64,000 bases of DNA. It comes from a virus. Taxonomy: Duplodnaviria > Caudoviricetes. The position numbers were made by a program, and so were the translations under genes. The DNA is taken from positions 192,001-256,000 of the IMG/VR virus record IMGVR_UViG_3300009031_000221; one strand, 5' to 3'. Positions within the stretch are counted from its first letter, which is position 1. Every line of letters starts with the position of its first letter. Positions 3,858-44,179 of this stretch are shown in pieces. The notes below the pieces were generated by a model, which saw nothing but the letters and a program-made list of their open reading frames with translations, did not search any database and was not told where the DNA came from.

Positions 3858-6800
3858 GCCGCTCCTGGAGGAGCCGAACGACCTGAATAGGGGGAAGCGG
3901 CTAACTCAAGCATCTTGCGATCCAACTTCATCACAGATGCCTGTTCTTTGGTCAAGGATGACCACTCCTCTCCTAGTGCAAACCCTTGAGATTCCTTGAT
4001 GATAGCGTCGAACAGATCGGCACTCATTTCCTGGAAGGCCTGACGGATTTGATCCAACGTCGCATCGAATTCGTTCTTGGTTTCCTGATATACGGTATCG
4101 AGAGTGATTTCGGTGACGGGGCTGTCCTGTCCTTGACGCCATGCTCGAGCCGTCCGTTGCTTCATGGACTCCGCATTCCAAGTATCCCGGTCAAGGTGAA
4201 TCACGGTATTGAATGCCTGGAGGTTTTGCCCATACTTGTAGCTATTGCCTAACAAGGTCAAGGATTTGATCCCCGCGTCGGGAGAAATGATCTCCTGAAG
4301 GGCAAACGTCTGCCAGTCCCCGGCAGAATACTTGACGTTATCAGGAGATACGGGCAAGTCCATATATCGACGATAGGACTTCTTGACGAAAGGCAACTTG
4401 ATGCGTTCTAGCCCTTGCTTCTGTGCAATGTAGGCATCCGCTTCCCCTGGTTCACGAAGAATCTTGCGAACGACGTCCTCATCCATGCGAAGAACAACCT
4501 CAGTTAAAGGATTTCCTCCATCGAATATGTGGATTTCATTGTCAAGTGCTAGGGCATGTTTGCCCCCAACCCGTTCTGCCATATGGCTTGCGGACATCCA
4601 ACAGAACTTCTTGTCATCGCTGAATAACAAGGTGCGGCTTCCACCTTTGGAACGTTCAAGTCGCTTCTTGATGATGTCCTCTGCACTTTGGATCTTTGGA
4701 TTCCCTACACGGTCAGCTATAGCCCGTAGAACATCGGGTTGCATTTTGGCTTTCCAGAACGCCAGTATACGGGCAAGCACGGCAGGGACAGGACCGGAAT
4801 CCCCTTTGGCATTAACATATTTCCCTGTCTCGATCATGTTCGCAATACTACGCAATGCCACGTCCGGGTAATTGGATAGATCATTCATCAACTTCATGAC
4901 AGGTGCGAGCTTCGGCGCCGTTAGCATGACCTCCATTTCTTTGGAGGCTTCTGTAGGTTTACCTGAACCAATGTCCCGGTCACGGAAGGACTTGACCATG
5001 GTACCTAGGGCTGCCGCAAATTGCTTTGTCACGCCCCGATATACCTGTTCAACCGATGGATCCATTGTAATGGCTTGTGTGCCATCGCGAAGGGTCTGAA
5101 GAGGTGTTTCTCCTGCAACAATGTCTACATCCTGCTTATCCCCAAAGAACACATTACGGCGGACCCACACTGCCAAGTCTCGCTTCGTATTGGGGTTTTG
5201 CTTCACCCCAAGGATACGCCCGCCAACCGTTTCGCAATAGCGTTCCCGGAATTTCCGCATTTCTTTGTTGTTAGCCTTGGCTATGGGATCATCCCCATTC
5301 AAGGTCTTGTTGTTGCAAACGGCAGCTAGGATATATGCCTCCATCGGATCGGAATCGATAGGTGAGGCAGTCATGCAAATCTTGTGCGGGTGCCATAGCT
5401 GAAGGGCGGGTTCAGCCTTTACGGAAGGCGTTTTACGGCTCTTGGAAAGTAGCTCCTGTGCCTCATCAAAAAACACTGCTACATAAAGGGCAGGATCCCA
5501 AGGGTTTTCCATCCAGAATTCTACACTGGATATTGCTTTCGGGGGTTTGCCTGACTTGACAGCAGTCTTGAATTCCGTGTAAGAAATCCGATCCGTTCGG
5601 GATATAATCGCTCCCGCATCGGAAAGGAATGTTCGCATCTCTTTGGTCAAATTCCCCTTGAGCCCTGAAGGACATACGTACAGGAATCGCCCATTGGTAT
5701 GAATGACAGATCCATCGGGCTTCGTATAGGAAGCATTGTCATCCGCCAAACCATCCCGAATCATTTTCTGCATGGTCGCAATTGCGGTTAGGGTTTTACC
5801 TACCCCGGTATCAAGACCACATACGCCCTTGTTGCCGTTGGCATCAAGCCAAGCTAATGCCTGCTTTTGCTTGGTGCTCAACACAACCGGGCTCATGCCC
5901 CCATCGCGATTCTTACGGGCAGTCTTGAATCCCCCGATGCTATCCGCAGTGTAATAGCCGAGATTGGTTCGTGCCGTGGCCTGTTCTGCGTATGCCAAGT
6001 CCTTGTAATAATCCTGTACCTGTTTGAGGGCTTCCGTAGAAAGCGCCATCCCCTTCAGGGCATCCAGAACAAGTCCGAAATCCTTGGGATCAAAGAAGAA
6101 CCCTGATGCCCGAGTATCCGTCAAGGGAACCCACTCAATGGATGGAACACAACCCTTCTTGGAATACCAAGATTGAGAATTGCAGGACAGGAGCTTCATA
6201 GCATCCCGTAATTCTGCCATTGCTGTCGTATTTGGAATCCGCACATACAAACGATTGGATTGTGTCTTAAGGGTTTCCCCGTCAGGCATTGTGCGAATAT
6301 CGTCCGGGGTTCCTACGGATACGTAGGGTTCACGGTTTCGAGCGTCGATCTTCCTGGGGCATGCCTTGGATTTCCCTTCTACCGGGTCATAGGAATAGGC
6401 AGTGCCTTCTACCATGCGCCCCGTTTCATTGACTACATCGTCAAGTAGACATCCCTTGAAACGCCCGCTGATGATAACCTTGACCGATGTGACGTGAGGA
6501 TTATCACTATCAATAGCCAGGGGTTTACGACGGACAGGGAATATCCGGGTCATTTGACCCTGCTTGGCCTTGTCATCCGTGATGGATACCATTTCTACAG
6601 GCCCAACGAGCCCGTCAACGTCCTCATCCGATAGGGTTCGGATATTTGCTACCGGCAATGTGGAACGATTATGTGCTCGGCTAAGAATCTGATTGGCCTT
6701 GTTGACGGCAGTACGACGGTCAATGAATTCTCGAGGGGTCAGAATGGAACCGTCCAAGTCGTAGACGTGCTTTTCCTGGGTTTCCGGATCAACCCCAAAC

Positions 6801-12090: not shown

Positions 12091-12531
12091 TTACTCCCCC
12101 TCTGTAGGAGGCCTGTGCTGGAGTGCCACCATGGTCATCATCTCATGAATGGTATCCGGGACTATAGCTGGAATGGTTGTCACAAGCATCTCTGTACAAG
12201 CGGCTGTCAATTCCTCTCGCATTGCAATTTGAGCCGCATCATCCCCAGCTAGATATCGAATAATCAGATCATTGTCCCGTGTCATTGCCGTCAGGATGCA
12301 CATATAAGCTTCCCGACGAAGTGCCTCCACAAGGAGTGCATGTGCTATTGCTCGAGTCCCCTTACCAGGCCATGAATCAAGCAATTCAGCATCGGCGCTT
12401 GATGCGGGTGTTTGATAAGACCAAATATGCCCCGTGAGATCCCGACATATCCGTACATTCAATGCGACGGTAGTTCCGGTAGGATGTTGTCCTGTAGGAG
12501 CCCATAATGCATCTGGGGGGATATTGCTCAT
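12091..12531 (-). CDS. Hypothetical protein
   Basis: 146-aa ORF, ATGA overlap with the groEL stop. Confidence 0.7.
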   Translation of the reverse strand: MSNIPPDALWAPTGQHPTGTTVALNVRICRDLTGHIWSYQTPASSADAELLDSWPGKGTRAIAHALLVEALRREAYMCILTAMTRDNDLIIRYLAGDDAAQIAMREELTAACTEMLVTTIPAIVPDTIHEMMTMVALQHRPPTEGE

Positions 12532-14174
12532 GGTTCATCCCGGAGTACGATTGCCGTTTCAACGGTGAGGATAGTAGCCGCCACGGATACTGCCGCTTTG
12601 ATTGTAGCAAGGGCAACAGCGGTCGGGTCCATAATCATGGGATCCACGGAAAAGTCCCGATAGGTTTCGGTCAAAGCATCCCATCCAACCCAACCGTATC
12701 CTGGGGTGTTCAAGTCATCGACTTTTGACCATGCATCCAGGACGTTGTATACAACAACAGTGCCCTCCTCACCGGCATTGTTGGCAATGACTTCAAGGGG
12801 ACGCATCAAAGCACGACGGACAATATTGCGCCCGTAGTCTTCCGCCGTGATACAATCCTTGTTCTGATATGTCCCCGTGTTGTTTAGCCTGATCCCATTG
12901 GACAATGCCGATGCTGCCCGCAGATAGGCGATTCCGCCTCCAGGCACAACACCATCGCGAAGAGCGGCACGGACGGAACCCAGGGCATCCTCAACACGGG
13001 CACGCCGTTCCTTGAGGGCTACTTCAGTAACACCTCCAATCTTGAGGATTGCCATGCCGCCAGACAACTTGGCGAGGCGTTCCTTGATCCGGTCACGGTC
13101 ATAGTCCGATGCGGAATGTTCTACCTGAGCCCGAAGGGTTGCAATTCGATCTTGTACGGCTTCCGTAGCCTCATCATGTGCAATCAAAAGGGTAGACTTG
13201 GGTTTGAATGTGATTTTCCGGAGCGACCCAAACCATTCAGGGTTCCATACCGTATGATCCAGCCCCGCATTAGGATCTACAAAGGTAGCTCCCGTGATAG
13301 CGGCAATGTCTTGAAGGTATTCCTCTTTACGGAACTGCAGCCCCGGTGCGCCAACCGCTACGGACTTCATGATATCCTTGACATCATTGACAACCATGGT
13401 TGTCAATGCGTCCCCTTCAGCAACCATGCAGAATACAACCAAAGGATTGTCGGGCCACTGGCTTGCAACCTCGAGCAAGTCCTGTACGTCTTCCAATGTA
13501 CGCAGGCGCCCATGGATGACTGCTACTAGAGGGTTGTCAATGACACGCTCGAGTTGATCCCCAAGGAATGCATCGCTACAAGGGCCTTGATCAAGCTCCA
13601 TGCCTTCTTTGAATTCCAGGGTGACTTCCATCCCGACACCATCTTCGATGGTTACGGTTCCGTCCTTGCCAACCGCCATGCATGCTTCCGCCATATTCTG
13701 TGCAACTTCTACGTCACCATTGCTGGCGAGCATTGCAATACGTTCAAGGTCGGCTTGATCCTTGATTTGATGTGTCATCCCACGAATGGCATCCATCGCC
13801 AAATCACGTGCGGCGAACATCCCACGGACGAGACCTCCAGGGTCTTGACCGCATGCAATCATCTTGTGCCCTTCCTGAAGCATTGAAGCCGTTAGGACTG
13901 CAACGGTTGTAGTTCCATCCCCAACCTCATTGTTCACAGCGATGCACGCTTCCTTGAGCATTTGACATCCCTGATTTTCAATGTGATCCTCAAGGGATAC
14001 TTCACGGGCTACCGTCACACCATCCTTGGTGGCAAGCATTCCGGCAAAGCGTTCCATGATACATGTGCGTCCGCCAGGGCCATAGGTGACTGCCACCGCT
14101 TGTGCGATCTTGTTCGCCCCCCGAAGTAAACGGGTTCGTGCGTCATTTCCGGTATAGATGTTTCGTGCGCTCAT
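12528..14174 (-). CDS. groEL: Divergent group I chaperonin (GroEL-like); likely start MSARNIY at 14174
   Basis: TKDGVTVAREV, GDGTTT, KERLAKLSGG, DGVVPGGG motifs. Confidence 0.95.
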   Translation of the reverse strand: MSARNIYTGNDARTRLLRGANKIAQAVAVTYGPGGRTCIMERFAGMLATKDGVTVAREVSLEDHIENQGCQMLKEACIAVNNEVGDGTTTVAVLTASMLQEGHKMIACGQDPGGLVRGMFAARDLAMDAIRGMTHQIKDQADLERIAMLASNGDVEVAQNMAEACMAVGKDGTVTIEDGVGMEVTLEFKEGMELDQGPCSDAFLGDQLERVIDNPLVAVIHGRLRTLEDVQDLLEVASQWPDNPLVVFCMVAEGDALTTMVVNDVKDIMKSVAVGAPGLQFRKEEYLQDIAAITGATFVDPNAGLDHTVWNPEWFGSLRKITFKPKSTLLIAHDEATEAVQDRIATLRAQVEHSASDYDRDRIKERLAKLSGGMAILKIGGVTEVALKERRARVEDALGSVRAALRDGVVPGGGIAYLRAASALSNGIRLNNTGTYQNKDCITAEDYGRNIVRRALMRPLEVIANNAGEEGTVVVYNVLDAWSKVDDLNTPGYGWVGWDALTETYRDFSVDPMIMDPTAVALATIKAAVSVAATILTVETAIVLRDEP

Positions 14175-14236
14175 GTTCCAATCCAAGGCAAGCGTGCCCA
14201 CATTGGAACAATACCCCGAAAAGGTGATCGGTAAGG

Positions 14237-15034
14237 CTACTGATAAGCTATGCGACCGATCCAACGTCCTGCAACACGGGATGCCGAGGAATTAGATGCT
14301 AAAACTGGAAATGCCCGATAGAATTCCTTGACCGCTTTCTTCCATTTGCCCGGTGCCAGCTTTTTCCACACTGCCATTTGTATGGAAGCAGTCCCTGCAA
14401 TCAATTTCATCAGGTAATCCCGTTGGTCCTGATCCTCCTCCACCCCTTTCAGGTGCTTCCGGGCTTGATTGATTATGTCGTTCAGTTGGGGATAGAATTC
14501 CACGTCATCCAATAGGTAATTCTCTTCGTAGGTCCTGCGGGAGTCATAAAGCTGAAGTGCCTGACTATGCTGGGGTGTCATGATGTGCTGGGAAGGCATT
14601 CCCGGTCGGGGAGCCACTGAATCCGAAAGCTTTGCCAAGTCCGCCATGAAGGACTGGGTTACGTGCTGTAGCTCATGCCTGACATCATCCGATAACCTAT
14701 CTACATCATGTTTGTATTTGAAACGCAGTATGATCGTCAGGTTATGGGTTTTCGGATCCCAAGTACCGGTTCCACGATCTTGAGCCTTCGCCACTCTCAC
14801 GATGACTTTGATAGCCTTCCATTCAGGGGGTAACTTCTTCAACGATTTGATTAGCGGGGATTCGGCATATCGCCACCCGATTAGATCCATTGGGAAAGTC
14901 CGAATTGCGGACTTGTTCATATTGGGTCCGAAGGCAGCCCGCCAATCAGCGTTTGCAGCCAACACCCATTCCGTGATGTCATTGACCATCGCGGGAGGAG
15001 GTTCTAGAAGTCCTGCATCTATTGATATGCTCAT
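14237..15034 (-). CDS. Putative zinc metalloprotease-like protein
   Basis: VRHELQHVTQ HExxH motif and downstream YLLDDVEFY. Confidence 0.55.
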   Translation of the reverse strand: MSISIDAGLLEPPPAMVNDITEWVLAANADWRAAFGPNMNKSAIRTFPMDLIGWRYAESPLIKSLKKLPPEWKAIKVIVRVAKAQDRGTGTWDPKTHNLTIILRFKYKHDVDRLSDDVRHELQHVTQSFMADLAKLSDSVAPRPGMPSQHIMTPQHSQALQLYDSRRTYEENYLLDDVEFYPQLNDIINQARKHLKGVEEDQDQRDYLMKLIAGTASIQMAVWKKLAPGKWKKAVKEFYRAFPVLASNSSASRVAGRWIGRIAYQ

Positions 15035-16020: not shown

Positions 16021-16049
16021 TTGACAGCCGCACCGTGGAGGTGTAGGGT
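16021..16049 (+). promoter_or_regulatory. Sigma70-like promoter
   Basis: TTGACA-17 bp-TAGGGT with TG extension. Confidence 0.55.
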
Positions 16050-16074
16050 GTTCAATGTGAGGACAAGAAACGTG

Positions 16075-16179
16075 ATGAAGACCTTAACCACATCCTTTAC
16101 CGAGCGCAGTACCGTGACAAAGGGCGAGTCCCTTACGTCATGGTATCTGTTGTCGCCCGAGGGGGTGGGAGGTCGCTGA
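16075..16179 (+). CDS. 34-aa leader peptide MKTLTTSFTERSTVTKGESLTSWYLLSPEGVGGR
   Basis: GAGGA RBS upstream; translated by hand; followed by a terminator hairpin. Confidence 0.6.
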   Translation: MKTLTTSFTERSTVTKGESLTSWYLLSPEGVGGR

Positions 16180-16202
16180 ACGATTGAATCGTCTGCACCT
16201 TG

Positions 16203-16234
16203 AAACCCTCTCCGGCAACGCCCGAGAGGGTTTT
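16203..16234 (+). terminator. Attenuator-type intrinsic terminator
   Basis: AAACCCTCTC/GAGAGGGTTT 10-bp stem followed by T; its 5' arm can alternatively pair with 16149-16166. Confidence 0.65.
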
Positions 16235-16265
16235 CGCGTTTCTAGGGCCTTCGCGGCCCGCTGAA

Positions 16266-16535: not shown

Positions 16536-16577
16536 CCTAATAGTTGACAGGCTTGCGAAACTCCCATACCATGAGGT

Positions 16578-17427: not shown

Positions 17428-17517
17428 GGAGATGTGGCCGAGCCCGGCTTATGGCGTCAGTCTTGAAAACTGAAGGGTGTAAAAGCTCCAGGGGTTCGAA
17501 TCCCTTCGTCTCCGCCA
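17428..17517 (+). tRNA. tRNA-Ser(TGA)
   Basis: Loop CUUGAAA; encoded CCA. Confidence 0.9.
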
Positions 17518-18007: not shown

Positions 18008-18020
18008 CTGAGTAAATAAT

Positions 18021-18091
18021 GGGTTGGGTGCTGGGCACGGATTGGTCTCCAAAACCGATCTTCGAGGGTTCGATTCCCTCCCTTCTCGCCA
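18021..18091 (+). tRNA. Atypical tRNA-Trp(CCA)
   Basis: Loop CUCCAAA; very short D-arm GUGC-UGG-GCAC; two U-U mismatches in the acceptor stem; encoded CCA. Confidence 0.6.
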
Positions 18092-18092
18092 T

Positions 18093-18235
18093 GAGGGGTA
18101 CGCCAAACGGATTGGCACAAGCATTGAAAACTTGAAAACAGTAAACATGCTTCACAACTCGTCAACATTCCTTCGGGAATGCCGACAATCAGTTAAGCAC
18201 ACACGCAATAGTAGGTTCGACTCCTACACCCCCCA
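18093..18235 (+). ncRNA. tRNA-like RNA carrying the conserved inserted stem module (remote copy)
   Basis: Acceptor, D and T arms present; insert UGCUU..ACUCGUC..GACAAUC..AAGCA-CACACG. Confidence 0.7.
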
Positions 18236-18421
18236 CTAATTCGGATCCGGCAATGATTCAAATAGGATTTCACCGTCCTCGCGGAGCCATGCAATGACAT
18301 GACCCGAAAGTACTAGATTAATCAATGCCTGATCAATTTCAGGAGTAGCTGAAGGTGGCAAGGCCCTTAGATGGGCAACGGCATCTTCTACGGAGATAGG
18401 TTCAAGAGTCAAAGGGGGCAT
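18236..18421 (-). CDS. Small hypothetical protein antisense within the tRNA operon
   Basis: 61-aa ORF filling a gap between tRNAs. Confidence 0.4.
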   Translation of the reverse strand: MPPLTLEPISVEDAVAHLRALPPSATPEIDQALINLVLSGHVIAWLREDGEILFESLPDPN

Positions 18422-18450
18422 ATCGGCACCTCAGAGATATTGTACCATAT

Positions 18451-20986: not shown

Positions 20987-21532
20987 ATGTCCATTCTTGC
21001 AGTTGATGTGTCCTACCAAGAGGATGTTGCCCAAGTCGCGGGCGTCCTGATTGAAAAATGGGAAGACACTGCAATCATTCAATCACACGTATTCACGATG
21101 CCCTGTCCTGCCCCCTATGAACCTGGGGCATTCTACAAGCGGGAACTTCCATGCATTCTAGCTTTGTTGGATCGCATGAAGGCCCCAGGGGTGATTAATC
21201 CAGAAAAGCCCGACTTCATCATCATTGATGGCTATGTGGACTTGGGCAAAGACCATCCCGGTTTGGGAAGGCACCTAGTAAATGCCCTCGGGCATGCCAA
21301 TGTCATTGGGGTTGCCAAGACAGCATTCAAAGATGCTCCTCACAAGGAGTGCCTTCGTGGCAAGAGCAAGAATCCTCTGTACATTACATCTGCCGGGGTT
21401 AGCGTGCACTTGGCAGATGTAGCTATCCGACTCATGCACGGACCCTATCGCATCCCCACTATTCTCAAGGAAGTAGATAGGCTAAGCCGCAGCCCAATGG
21501 AAGTGGCCCGGACGGACGAGGGGCTGGTTTGA
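20987..21532 (+). CDS. nfi: Endonuclease V family protein
   Basis: AVDVSY, YEPGAFYKRELP, IIDGY, IGVAK motifs. Confidence 0.85.
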   Translation: MSILAVDVSYQEDVAQVAGVLIEKWEDTAIIQSHVFTMPCPAPYEPGAFYKRELPCILALLDRMKAPGVINPEKPDFIIIDGYVDLGKDHPGLGRHLVNALGHANVIGVAKTAFKDAPHKECLRGKSKNPLYITSAGVSVHLADVAIRLMHGPYRIPTILKEVDRLSRSPMEVARTDEGLV

Positions 21533-21587
21533 AAACTAGCATGATGCGATAAGCGTCACAAGGGTTCGATTCCCTTTGCTTCCGCCA
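21499..21587 (+). tRNA. tRNA-Ser(TGA)-like with irregular anticodon loop, overlapping the nfi 3' end
   Basis: GGAAG../CUUCC-G-CCA acceptor, long variable arm, T arm; 6-nt loop UUGAAA. Confidence 0.6.
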
Positions 21588-42772: not shown

Positions 42773-44179
42773 CTACGCTTTGAAAGTCAAGATAGGCCTC
42801 ATCTTTGCCACCTTCGACAATATACCCGCCGTTACCTGGGATTGTATCACGGGACCAATGTCCTTGTACGCGGCGGGCGCTTCCTCGATTTTACGCTCAT
42901 ACCGCAATGAAATGCAATCCACACCGTCTAACCCAAGGTTGCCTTCGCGTTTCATGTCCACTCGGGATTGACTTCGACCCGCACCGTGACTTGCCGACAG
43001 CAAGTGTTCTTCCGAACCCAACCCCTTGCAAACATACGATGCTGACCCCATGGACCCAGGAATGAGAAGCCAATCTCCCAGGTTCGCCGGGCAAGCCCCC
43101 TTGCGTTGAATCCATGTCCCCGAATGTTCCAAAGTGATGTTGTGCGGAATGTCTGTAATCATCGGGCACTCCAGGTCGTCCCCGAACACTTGTCGCATTC
43201 TCAATCGGGCAATCTCGGCAATCAACATGCGATTGACCCAGGCATAGTTGACAGCCGTAGCTTCTGCCGTCAAGTAATCCAGTTGACCTTCATCCTCCAG
43301 CAATGGAAACATGTGGCTAGTAGGGAATGGACGCTTGGTTGCTTCCCAGGCCTTACGTGCCCGAGTTTGAGCGTTCTGCCCAACATACAACCCGACGAAT
43401 CGGGAACCCGTATGCGCCATGAACCCGACTTGCCCTACCTTGATTCCCAGGGCATACGCCGCATGCCTATCTAGGATTTCTTCTACGACCTGGAATTCTA
43501 CGAAGTGGTTGCCCCCTCCAATAGTTCCCAACCCGTCATCCCGAATGATCTTGGATCCTATGCCGTCTACCAAGCCTTGAGGGGCGTACTTAACATCTCC
43601 ACGGGCAATGTTTGTGTACTGAACTCGATCACACTCCTCGTGCAACTGCTCAATGCGGGAAGCCTGCGTCATGCCATGCTTCCAACCATCATTGTCCTGG
43701 GCCTCGAGCCACCCAAGTAATCCGTCCGTGAACATCGCCTTTTGGACGCTTACGGTTTGTGCCACATCTCGAGTGCCAAAGAAGTAATCCCCCTTCAGCA
43801 ATTCGACCAAGGCGTCCCGCTTTGCCAGGAACTGATCAATGGTCAAATCCGTGAGGTGCAATCTCATGCCACAGTTGATGTCCGTACCAATGGCTGCCGG
43901 AATCAGAAACTGTGTTTGAACTACGGAACCAATGGCAACGCCCGCATCTCCAGGATGGAAATCCGGTGTGGCACAACATCGAGTGACGCCTTCCAAAGAA
44001 GCCAGATTGGCTAGCTGTAGAAGGGCTTTGTTCTCAACCGGCAATTCGTCTGGAAGCAATACATCCGCATAGGGAAGGTGGTCATGATTGGCAATACGAA
44101 CTTGCCAACCGCCATCGACCTTACGAACATCGAGGCCTTCTTTGACTAGAGCCTTTAGAAGGCGATCGTGATTTGCCAT
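42773..44179 (-). CDS. rtcB: RtcB-family RNA ligase
   Basis: TPDFHPG, GTDINCG, GGGNHF, HTGSR, PHN, RKGA, SHGAGR motifs. Confidence 0.93.
   Translation of the reverse strand: MANHDRLLKALVKEGLDVRKVDGGWQVRIANHDHLPYADVLLPDELPVENKALLQLANLASLEGVTRCCATPDFHPGDAGVAIGSVVQTQFLIPAAIGTDINCGMRLHLTDLTIDQFLAKRDALVELLKGDYFFGTRDVAQTVSVQKAMFTDGLLGWLEAQDNDGWKHGMTQASRIEQLHEECDRVQYTNIARGDVKYAPQGLVDGIGSKIIRDDGLGTIGGGNHFVEFQVVEEILDRHAAYALGIKVGQVGFMAHTGSRFVGLYVGQNAQTRARKAWEATKRPFPTSHMFPLLEDEGQLDYLTAEATAVNYAWVNRMLIAEIARLRMRQVFGDDLECPMITDIPHNITLEHSGTWIQRKGACPANLGDWLLIPGSMGSASYVCKGLGSEEHLLSASHGAGRSQSRVDMKREGNLGLDGVDCISLRYERKIEEAPAAYKDIGPVIQSQVTAGILSKVAKMRPILTFKA

Follow-up and report, generated by a model that had tools for sequence, protein, structure and literature searches.

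The window analysed here is a 64,000-nt stretch that covers bases 192001-256000 of a 536-kb IMG/VR phage record. ARAGORN made 53 tRNA or tmRNA calls in this window, whose genes include a chaperonin, PTH2, an endonuclease V-like protein, several HNH proteins and RtcB. Inside a tRNA operon on the plus strand lies a tRNA-shaped RNA gene of 143 nt (18093-18235, +), referred to below as E1. It was delimited by sequence, fold and Rfam alignment and has an extra arm in its variable region. The arm contains a conserved module of 58 nt (18148-18205, +), which was recognized by the scores of two covariance models (R1 and R2), the family consensus and covariation.

Genomic setting and structure of E1

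Upstream, a tRNA-Trp(CCA)-like gene (18017-18091, +) whose G-CCA is encoded ends 1 nt before E1. ARAGORN called this gene, and the Rfam results at the gathering score did not include it. On inspection by eye, its D loop is 3 nt long and its acceptor stem contains two U.U mismatches; its counterpart in a related phage contig, L002 (5003-5074), looks regular. No terminator-like site was predicted on the plus strand from 15.8 to 19.2 kb. Because of this and of the 1-nt gap from the upstream CCA, E1 is likely co-transcribed with the neighbouring tRNAs, as far as can be judged from the sequence.

Further upstream, an attenuator-like region (16021-16245, +) combines a TTGACA promoter with a short ORF and a terminator hairpin (16206-16245) that ends in a U-run. 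The short ORF is rich in Thr, Ser, Leu, Phe, Glu, Tyr and Trp codons, which are read by downstream tRNAs. An HNH gene and a promoter-like site with 10/12 matches (16544-16572, +) lie between the attenuator and E1, and transcription from this site could reach genes beyond 16.6 kb without passing the attenuator. In the preliminary description, E1 was said to be co-expressed with an attenuator-controlled operon. Joint transcription with the neighbours stands as likely, whereas control of E1 by the attenuator is possible and, because the promoter-like site intervenes, uncertain.

On the other side, a 61-aa ORF on the minus strand (18236-18421) abuts the 3′ end of E1. A GAGGTG ribosome site and an extended -10-like box, TGgTACAAT, go with this ORF, for which Pfam and PHROG searches gave no match. 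In L002, this place is taken by an antisense gene for a 254-aa HNH endonuclease (L002:4086-4850, +). The site just after an E1-type element seems to attract inserted genes. About 3 kb downstream of E1, ARAGORN called a tRNA with a four-base anticodon (tgaa; 21498-21586, +), which overlaps the end of the endonuclease V-like ORF (20987-21532) and was not reported by Rfam at the gathering score.

E1 follows the normal order of a tRNA. The 5′ strand of the acceptor stem, GAGGGGU (18093-18099, +), pairs with ACCCCCC (18228-18234) with one A2.C71 mismatch. The discriminator is A at 18235, and CCA is not encoded. Positions 8 and 9 are AC, with an A in place of U8. The D arm (18102-18116, +) has the stem GCCA/UGGC and the loop AACGGAU, which contains GG. 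The anticodon-like arm, CAAGC-AUUGAAA-ACUUG (18118-18134, +), can be drawn in two ways, either with 4 bp and a 9-nt loop, or with five positions closed by C.A and the 7-nt loop AUUGAAA; the Rfam tRNA alignment flags this pair as non-standard. An A-rich spacer of 13 nt, AAAACAGUAAACA (18135-18147, +), stands ahead of the module, and spacers of the AACAGCAA type are found upstream of the module in the flanks of E1's relatives. The T arm, GUAGG-UUCGACU-CCUAC (18211-18227, +), is canonical and begins 5 nt past the module tail.

The module itself is closed by helix P1, UGCUU/AAGCA (18148-18152 with 18195-18199). Inside P1, a 5′ loop that ends in AACUC, and hence in CUC, faces AAUCAGUU; the full loops read CACAACUC and AAUCAGUU. 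The inner helix P2, GUC..GAC, starts with G and ends with C, which is followed by A, and it is capped by AUUCC-UUCG-GGAAU. The tail CACACG occupies 18200-18205. All the features given in the preliminary description, namely the acceptor stem, D arm, 9-nt loop option, UGCUU/AAGCA stem, ACUCGUC opposite GACAAUC, CACACG tail and T arm, were found in place.

Two further observations concern the ends of these elements. The spacer before P1 (AACAGUAA in E1, 18135-18147; AACAGCAA in relatives) resembles the tail after the 3′ strand of P1 (ACACGCAA or ACAAGCA, 18200-18209), so that the closing stem has similar A/C-rich motifs on both sides. In many family members, among them E1 (18235-18239) and those of L002, L011, L010, L038 and L066, the acceptor strand is immediately followed by the 3′ end CCCC-A-CUA, which takes the place of an encoded CCA. 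This common 3′ end may be a shared processing signal.

The minimum free energy fold of E1 is a cloverleaf plus the extra arm, with -37.3 kcal/mol and z = -3.1; none of 200 shuffled sequences was as stable. The Rfam tRNA model (RF00005) aligned E1 end to end, from position 1 to position 71, with a score of 24.3 bits, which is below the gathering score of 29. In this alignment, an insert of 70 nt falls between positions 44 and 45, that is, between the anticodon arm and the T arm. ARAGORN did not call E1 as a tRNA, either with the module present or with the module excised. Several marks of a canonical tRNA are accordingly lacking in E1: a gathering-level Rfam score or an ARAGORN call, U8, a fully paired acceptor stem and a standard pair closing the anticodon loop.

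The module and its family

The module plan of E1 is repeated in eight modules at 59405-61645 on the minus strand. They belong to a cluster of eight to nine module copies (59405-61702, -), most of which are set in tRNA-shaped bodies. The modules of the cluster, all on the minus strand, are E2 (61592-61645), E3 (61285-61350), E4 (60979-61046), E5 (60221-60273), E6 (59950-60013), E7 (59791-59854), E8 (59572-59638) and E9 (59405-59489).

Several details of the cluster were noted. The E8 and E9 modules precede whole tRNA genes (Ile-AAU and Lys-UUU; 59334-59575, -) and do not lie within a tRNA body. Their ACACG tail continues into the opening bases of the acceptor stem, and similar cases occur in two other phage loci (L010:8810 and L050:9187). 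A TTGACA is placed 18-19 nt ahead of the 5′ ends of E2 and E5 (61720-61745 and 60335-60365, -), as if each of these two owned a promoter. E1 appears to have no promoter of its own and to depend on read-through of the operon. The spacers of the cluster (59100-61560, -) contain recurring GTAATCCGG-like boxes in small hairpins, and GATGTTGAGAACA.

To align the eight cluster modules, we used MAFFT, which misaligned the variable hairpin. Because of this failure, covariance model R1 was seeded from only the three well-aligned copies, E4, E6 and E7, with a hand-checked structure, and the remaining copies were aligned with Infernal. Model R2 was built from 25 modules of other phages, none of them from the window, which were found with R1 in 63 huge-phage loci. 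R2 is independent of E1 but not of the cluster, because its training set was found using R1.

In a search of both strands of the window with filters off, R1 gave the E1 module 26.7 bits (E 4.8e-4), the second match outside the training set after E2, and R2 gave it 28.2 bits (E 2.5e-5) in the window, the E-values being rough because the calibration was short. With R1 and R2 alike, E1 was the sole match of the window with E < 0.1 outside 59.4-61.7 kb. R2 also recovered E2-E9, with E3 and E9 found weakly (14 and 13.6 bits; E 0.13-0.16). The membership of E1 in the 59.7-61.7-kb family, as originally proposed, is borne out by these scores. The test set at that time, recovery of E1 by a model made from other copies, had a positive outcome with the three-copy R1.

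Other searches were less useful. Regex and helix descriptor scans of the window and of the 536-kb genome were either too strict, missing E1 because its P1 is bulged, or too loose, matching coding sequence. A prefiltered R2 search of the 536-kb genome returned five places and missed E1 and E2; its sole extra candidate was at genome positions 12091-12127 (E 0.56).

In the 63 huge-phage loci, R2 found 92 matches, of which 77 were distinct. In the R2 alignment, standard pairs filled 88.7% of the cells, compared with 58.3% after shuffling and 23-46% when the partners were slid, a margin that is still large given that such counts are biased towards structure by an alignment fitted to the model. Two-sided changes were seen in 13 out of 13 modelled pairs, with a covariation score of 0.78 versus 0.24. 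Together with seven compensatory changes relative to the L002 element described below, these compensated pairs agree with the earlier proposal that the module is under selection.

Some letters are also conserved. [quoted passage not shown] The family consensus of the tail is YACA(C/A)G. The order module, tail, T arm and 3′ strand of the acceptor is the main layout of the family, found in at least 59 of the 77 members, and E1 conforms to it.

Two further candidate readings were tried and rejected. A mobile element acting at the DNA level with inverted ends was dismissed since the sequences of P1 and P2 vary among copies yet stay paired. Readings of the module or of E1 as a ribozyme, a riboswitch or a CRISPR repeat had no Rfam support.

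The Ro60-like protein and related phages

A gene on the minus strand (55951-57957) has an ORF of 668 aa, or 632 aa when started from 57849, the shorter form being the recorded one. Its product has an N-terminal ring-like helical domain and a vWA domain with a DxSxS motif. More than 1762 homologues belong to this protein family, and the best 120 of them are 56-80% identical. Pfam gave only a weak VWA_2 match on the protein. Pfam TROVE (PF05731) matched neither the protein nor any of the precomputed domains of the best 120 homologues, and a sequence-level search for Ro60 with phmmer, a profile against PDB, Pfam and PHROGs gave nothing beyond vWA. The Ro60 likeness of the protein is therefore visible solely by fold comparison.

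With a full-length AlphaFold model (pLDDT 82), the nine best Foldseek matches were Ro60/TROVE proteins, which aligned over 527-560 columns with E-values of 5e-8 to 5e-6 and low TM scores of 0.3-0.45. A model of the N-terminal 420 aa (pLDDT 86.6) was compared with 48,161 representative chains by VIA-align. Only Ro60 chains reached Z >= 8: 1YVP from Xenopus (11.5), 2NVO, which is Deinococcus Rsr (9.4), and 9L5Y from a Thermus phage (9.2). The next-best of the 48,161 chains had a Z of 6.7. Against Xenopus Ro60 1YVP, 290 residues of the domain were aligned with an rmsd of 4.5. Foldseek with the N-terminal domain alone gave a weak match to Rsr (E 0.065, probability 0.99). The vWA domain reached a Z of about 15, and D435, S437 and S439 of the MIDAS DxSxS are invariant. 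The predicted structure has the combination by which Ro60/TROVE proteins are defined, a helical ring plus a vWA domain with a MIDAS DxSxS. On these models, the protein is read as a distant Ro60-like protein that lies outside Pfam TROVE. An RtcB RNA ligase gene, which provides an RNA-repair context, is located at 42773-44179 (-; Pfam RtcB, E 2.7e-89).

The 63 loci searched with R2 were fetched with the ORF of this Ro60-like protein. A module lies within 10 kb of the Ro60-like gene in 42 of them. It is on the strand of the gene in 75 of the 77 distinct matches, at a median of 816 nt where it is upstream and of 4.1 kb where it is downstream. All module matches at E <= 0.01 in five whole related records are beside the Ro60-like gene, in a prefiltered search that loses some matches. 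The complete 436-kb genome of another relative, G002, has no Ro60-like gene and no module match at E <= 1. The module is tied in position and strand to the Ro60-like gene in related huge phages. E1 departs from this rule, as it is 38 kb from the gene and on the opposite strand. E1 is also 41 kb from the cluster and on the other strand, in line with the earlier statement that it is not a local tandem duplicate.

To compare the same position in related phages, we used the chaperonin gene (12528-14264, -) as an anchor, which led to syntenic tRNA operons in three other phage contigs, L002, L003 and L073. The chaperonin of L002 is 53% identical, and directly after its tRNA-Trp(CCA) gene there is an element of 137 nt (4851-4987, -). 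Segment for segment, the element is collinear with E1: its spacer has 13 nt, the loops on either side have 8 nt, the cap is UUCG, the tail reads CACAAG, the linker has 4 nt and the 3′ end is CCCCCCACUA. R2 gave its module 27.1 bits (E 6e-5). Seven two-sided compensatory changes separate E1 from the L002 element, three in the T stem, two in the D stem, which is GCGU/AUGC in L002, and two in P2. The anticodon arm was not kept; in L002 it has three of five pairs and the loop UUCCAAA, which reads CCA. The global identity of E1 to other members is about 64-69% throughout and does not single out the L002 element; orthology of the two is based on position, collinear segment lengths and the common 3′ end CCCCCCACUA.

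At the E1 site, L003, which is from G002, has a 17-nt gap after tRNA-Trp and no element. The operon of L073 has no module, though this contig, which is also represented by the locus L011, has a Ro60-like gene. The preliminary description suggested a look at the same position in related phages; there is an element after tRNA-Trp in L002 and none in the operons of L003 and L073. From this comparison, the operon copy is old, kept in one lineage and dispensable in others. Its proposed movement as a tRNA-like unit found no support. There is no sign of mobility, the site is fixed and common to one relative while two syntenic operons lack the element, and the module matches in the five whole related genomes all stay near the Ro60-like gene.

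Further relatives were sought in three ways. An exact-pattern scan of IMG/VR for the E1-type 3′ end returned the L002 contig again and no other. A scan of metagenomes with a chaperonin profile gave bacterial GroELs and one short phage contig that stops before the tRNA operon. Megablast and blastn against GenBank phages gave ordinary tRNA genes only and no close relative.

Interpretation of E1 and its family

We consider E1 to be probably a non-decoding, Y-RNA-like tRNA mimic which is made with the tRNA operon and docks the Ro60-like protein; both expression and binding are steps that we infer. E1 would be transcribed within the plus-strand tRNA operon, as suggested by the single nucleotide between its start and the CCA of the tRNA-like gene upstream. 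The tRNA-processing enzymes would excise it, and it would fold into an L-shape with an extra arm. This arm would then dock the Ro60-like protein that is encoded 38 kb away on the other strand, and a partner enzyme or host factor would meet the tRNA-shaped body as a look-alike of a tRNA. A parallel would be found in known Y RNAs, by which Ro60 is tethered to other proteins. Because an RtcB ligase gene is nearby, the likely field of action would be RNA quality control, or the repair or protection of tRNAs during infection.

The bodies around the module bear on what kind of mimicry this would be. When the module was excised in silico, ARAGORN read 55 of 87 family members as tRNA-shaped, and E1 was not among them. 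Over 20 different anticodons occur among the excised bodies, nine of which have a wrongly sized loop, and in the printed flanks several relatives are seen by eye to lack U33 in the anticodon loop. The varied anticodons, the odd loops, the missing U33 and the unconserved anticodon arm of L002 favour mimicry of shape for E1. Some other family members could still be chargeable.

Such charging can also be imagined for E1, which would then be a working tRNA, for example a class II-like one reading UCA with the anticodon UGA, whose variable arm serves as an identity or recruitment element or as a handle for a repair enzyme. A dense tRNA operon with four tRNA-Ser genes beside E1 is a fitting place for it, and the canonical T loop, the GG of the D loop, the possible 7-nt loop AUUGAAA with U33 and A37 and the 55 excised relatives called by ARAGORN are all in its favour. 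However, E1 scores below the Rfam threshold and is not called by ARAGORN with or without its module, and it has A8, A2.C71 and an anticodon loop closed by C.A. The window already contains a regular tRNA-Ser(UGA) at 17428-17517, the anticodon arm of the L002 counterpart is different, poorly paired and reads CCA, and relatives without U33 exist, which together make this reading improbable. We also give a low probability to the module being an intron-like or processing element, which would be excised, with RtcB joining the flanks to free a mature tRNA, or which would direct cleavage next to its YACACG tail. The phage does encode RtcB, the module occurs at several positions of the tRNA body and ahead of whole tRNAs, and many bodies are tRNA-like once it is removed. 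Bulge-helix-bulge introns have two 3-nt bulges with a 4-bp helix between them at the exon-intron junctions, but no such structure is found here, where a simple P1 helix with 8-nt loops facing each other lies between the junctions. A group I intron would have to be far longer than this insert of about 70 nt, and no Rfam intron or ribozyme matched it. Excision would leave a 17-nt remnant in the variable region of E1, whose body is not tRNA-like by ARAGORN, and the conserved loops and tight linkage to the Ro60-like gene suit a docking site for a protein better.

The remaining alternative also appears improbable to us. On this reading, a duplicated cluster member strayed into the tRNA operon, lost its function and is now decaying, and E1 would be what is left of it. 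Decay would account for the distance from the Ro60-like gene and the other strand, for the weak anticodon arm and the acceptor mismatch, for a family score in the middle to low range (28 bits, compared with 35-44 for the best copies) and for the absence of E1 from two syntenic operons. However, L002, even with a chaperonin only 53% identical, keeps a counterpart at the site, and the differences between the two are compensatory changes rather than random decay. Docking of the Ro60-like protein by a non-decoding mimic is the reading that we retain in the comparisons below.

YrlA-type Y RNAs of bacteria and phages combine a Ro60-binding stem with a tRNA-like domain and are encoded at most about 4 kb from the Ro60 gene on the same strand (PMC4201824). 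In the Thermus phage phiLo, Yrl1 and Yrl2 lie upstream of the Ro60 gene, and a CGAA motif in an internal loop is recognized (PMC12135203). For a few phages, a survey of jumbo phages mentioned TROVE proteins that have a tRNA-like partner, but it gave no description of such RNAs (PMC7824862). Like YrlA, members of the E1 family are small RNAs with tRNA-like D and T arms and a stem/internal-loop/stem element. The family also resembles YrlA in standing beside, and on the strand of, a protein with the Ro60-fold ring plus vWA, in having several copies per genome and in having RtcB nearby.

The two differ in architecture. E1 keeps the normal tRNA order, has both of its ends in the acceptor stem and has its arm growing from the variable region, so that the module is internal, whereas YrlA is permuted, with its ends forming the Ro-binding stem and its acceptor closed by a loop. 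The GNCGAAN0-1G or CGAA motif (PMC4201824, PMC12135203) is absent from E1, where the conserved letters are CUC-G, C-A and YACA(C/A)G. The presumed partner of E1 is not found by Pfam TROVE, and E1 is 38 kb from its gene on the other strand. The Rfam model RF02553, with a gathering score of 69 bits, had no match up to E 10 in 18080-18450 and a chance-level match of 16.3 bits in the cluster. Binding by a Ro-like protein, which the preliminary description put forward for testing, is a reasonable lead: the link in position and strand and the Ro60-ring fold speak for it, while the known motif is absent.

E1 shares with class II tRNAs, as modelled in RF00005, the cloverleaf, the T loop UUCGA, the GG of the D loop, the location in a tRNA operon and an arm that grows from the variable region. 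In contrast to them, its variable region is 75 nt long versus at most about 24, its score is below the Rfam threshold, U8 is missing, the acceptor and anticodon stems have mismatches and the counterpart does not keep the anticodon arm. In engineered "tRNA scaffold" RNAs, a tRNA body carries a grafted structured RNA of foreign origin, which can thereby be expressed stably. E1 would be similar in that a tRNA body gives processing and stability to a grafted functional hairpin; it differs from these constructs in being natural and conserved, in carrying the graft in the variable region instead of the anticodon arm and in being tied to a specific protein gene. Within the literature that we covered, which was incomplete, no normal-order tRNA whose variable region bears a docking arm was described.

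The role of the tRNA-like half of bacterial Y RNAs is an open question (PMC4201824), and a large natural family of this kind offers many variants with which to probe it. In this family, a docking arm would be placed on otherwise ordinary tRNA bodies of many "identities", beside a highly conserved Ro60-like protein. E1 indicates that a module-bearing unit can reside, and persist, away from the protein gene in a regular tRNA operon. It also provides a single-copy target for knock-out or expression work that would not disturb the cluster. More broadly, and only as a tentative suggestion, huge phages may possess an undescribed Ro60 particle with normal-order tRNA partners that carry the docking arm in the variable region, one of which would be wired into a translation-sensing operon. 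If this were true, the supply of particle RNA would track the demand for tRNA, for example in the protection or repair of tRNAs or in the supply of decoys under attack by host defences.
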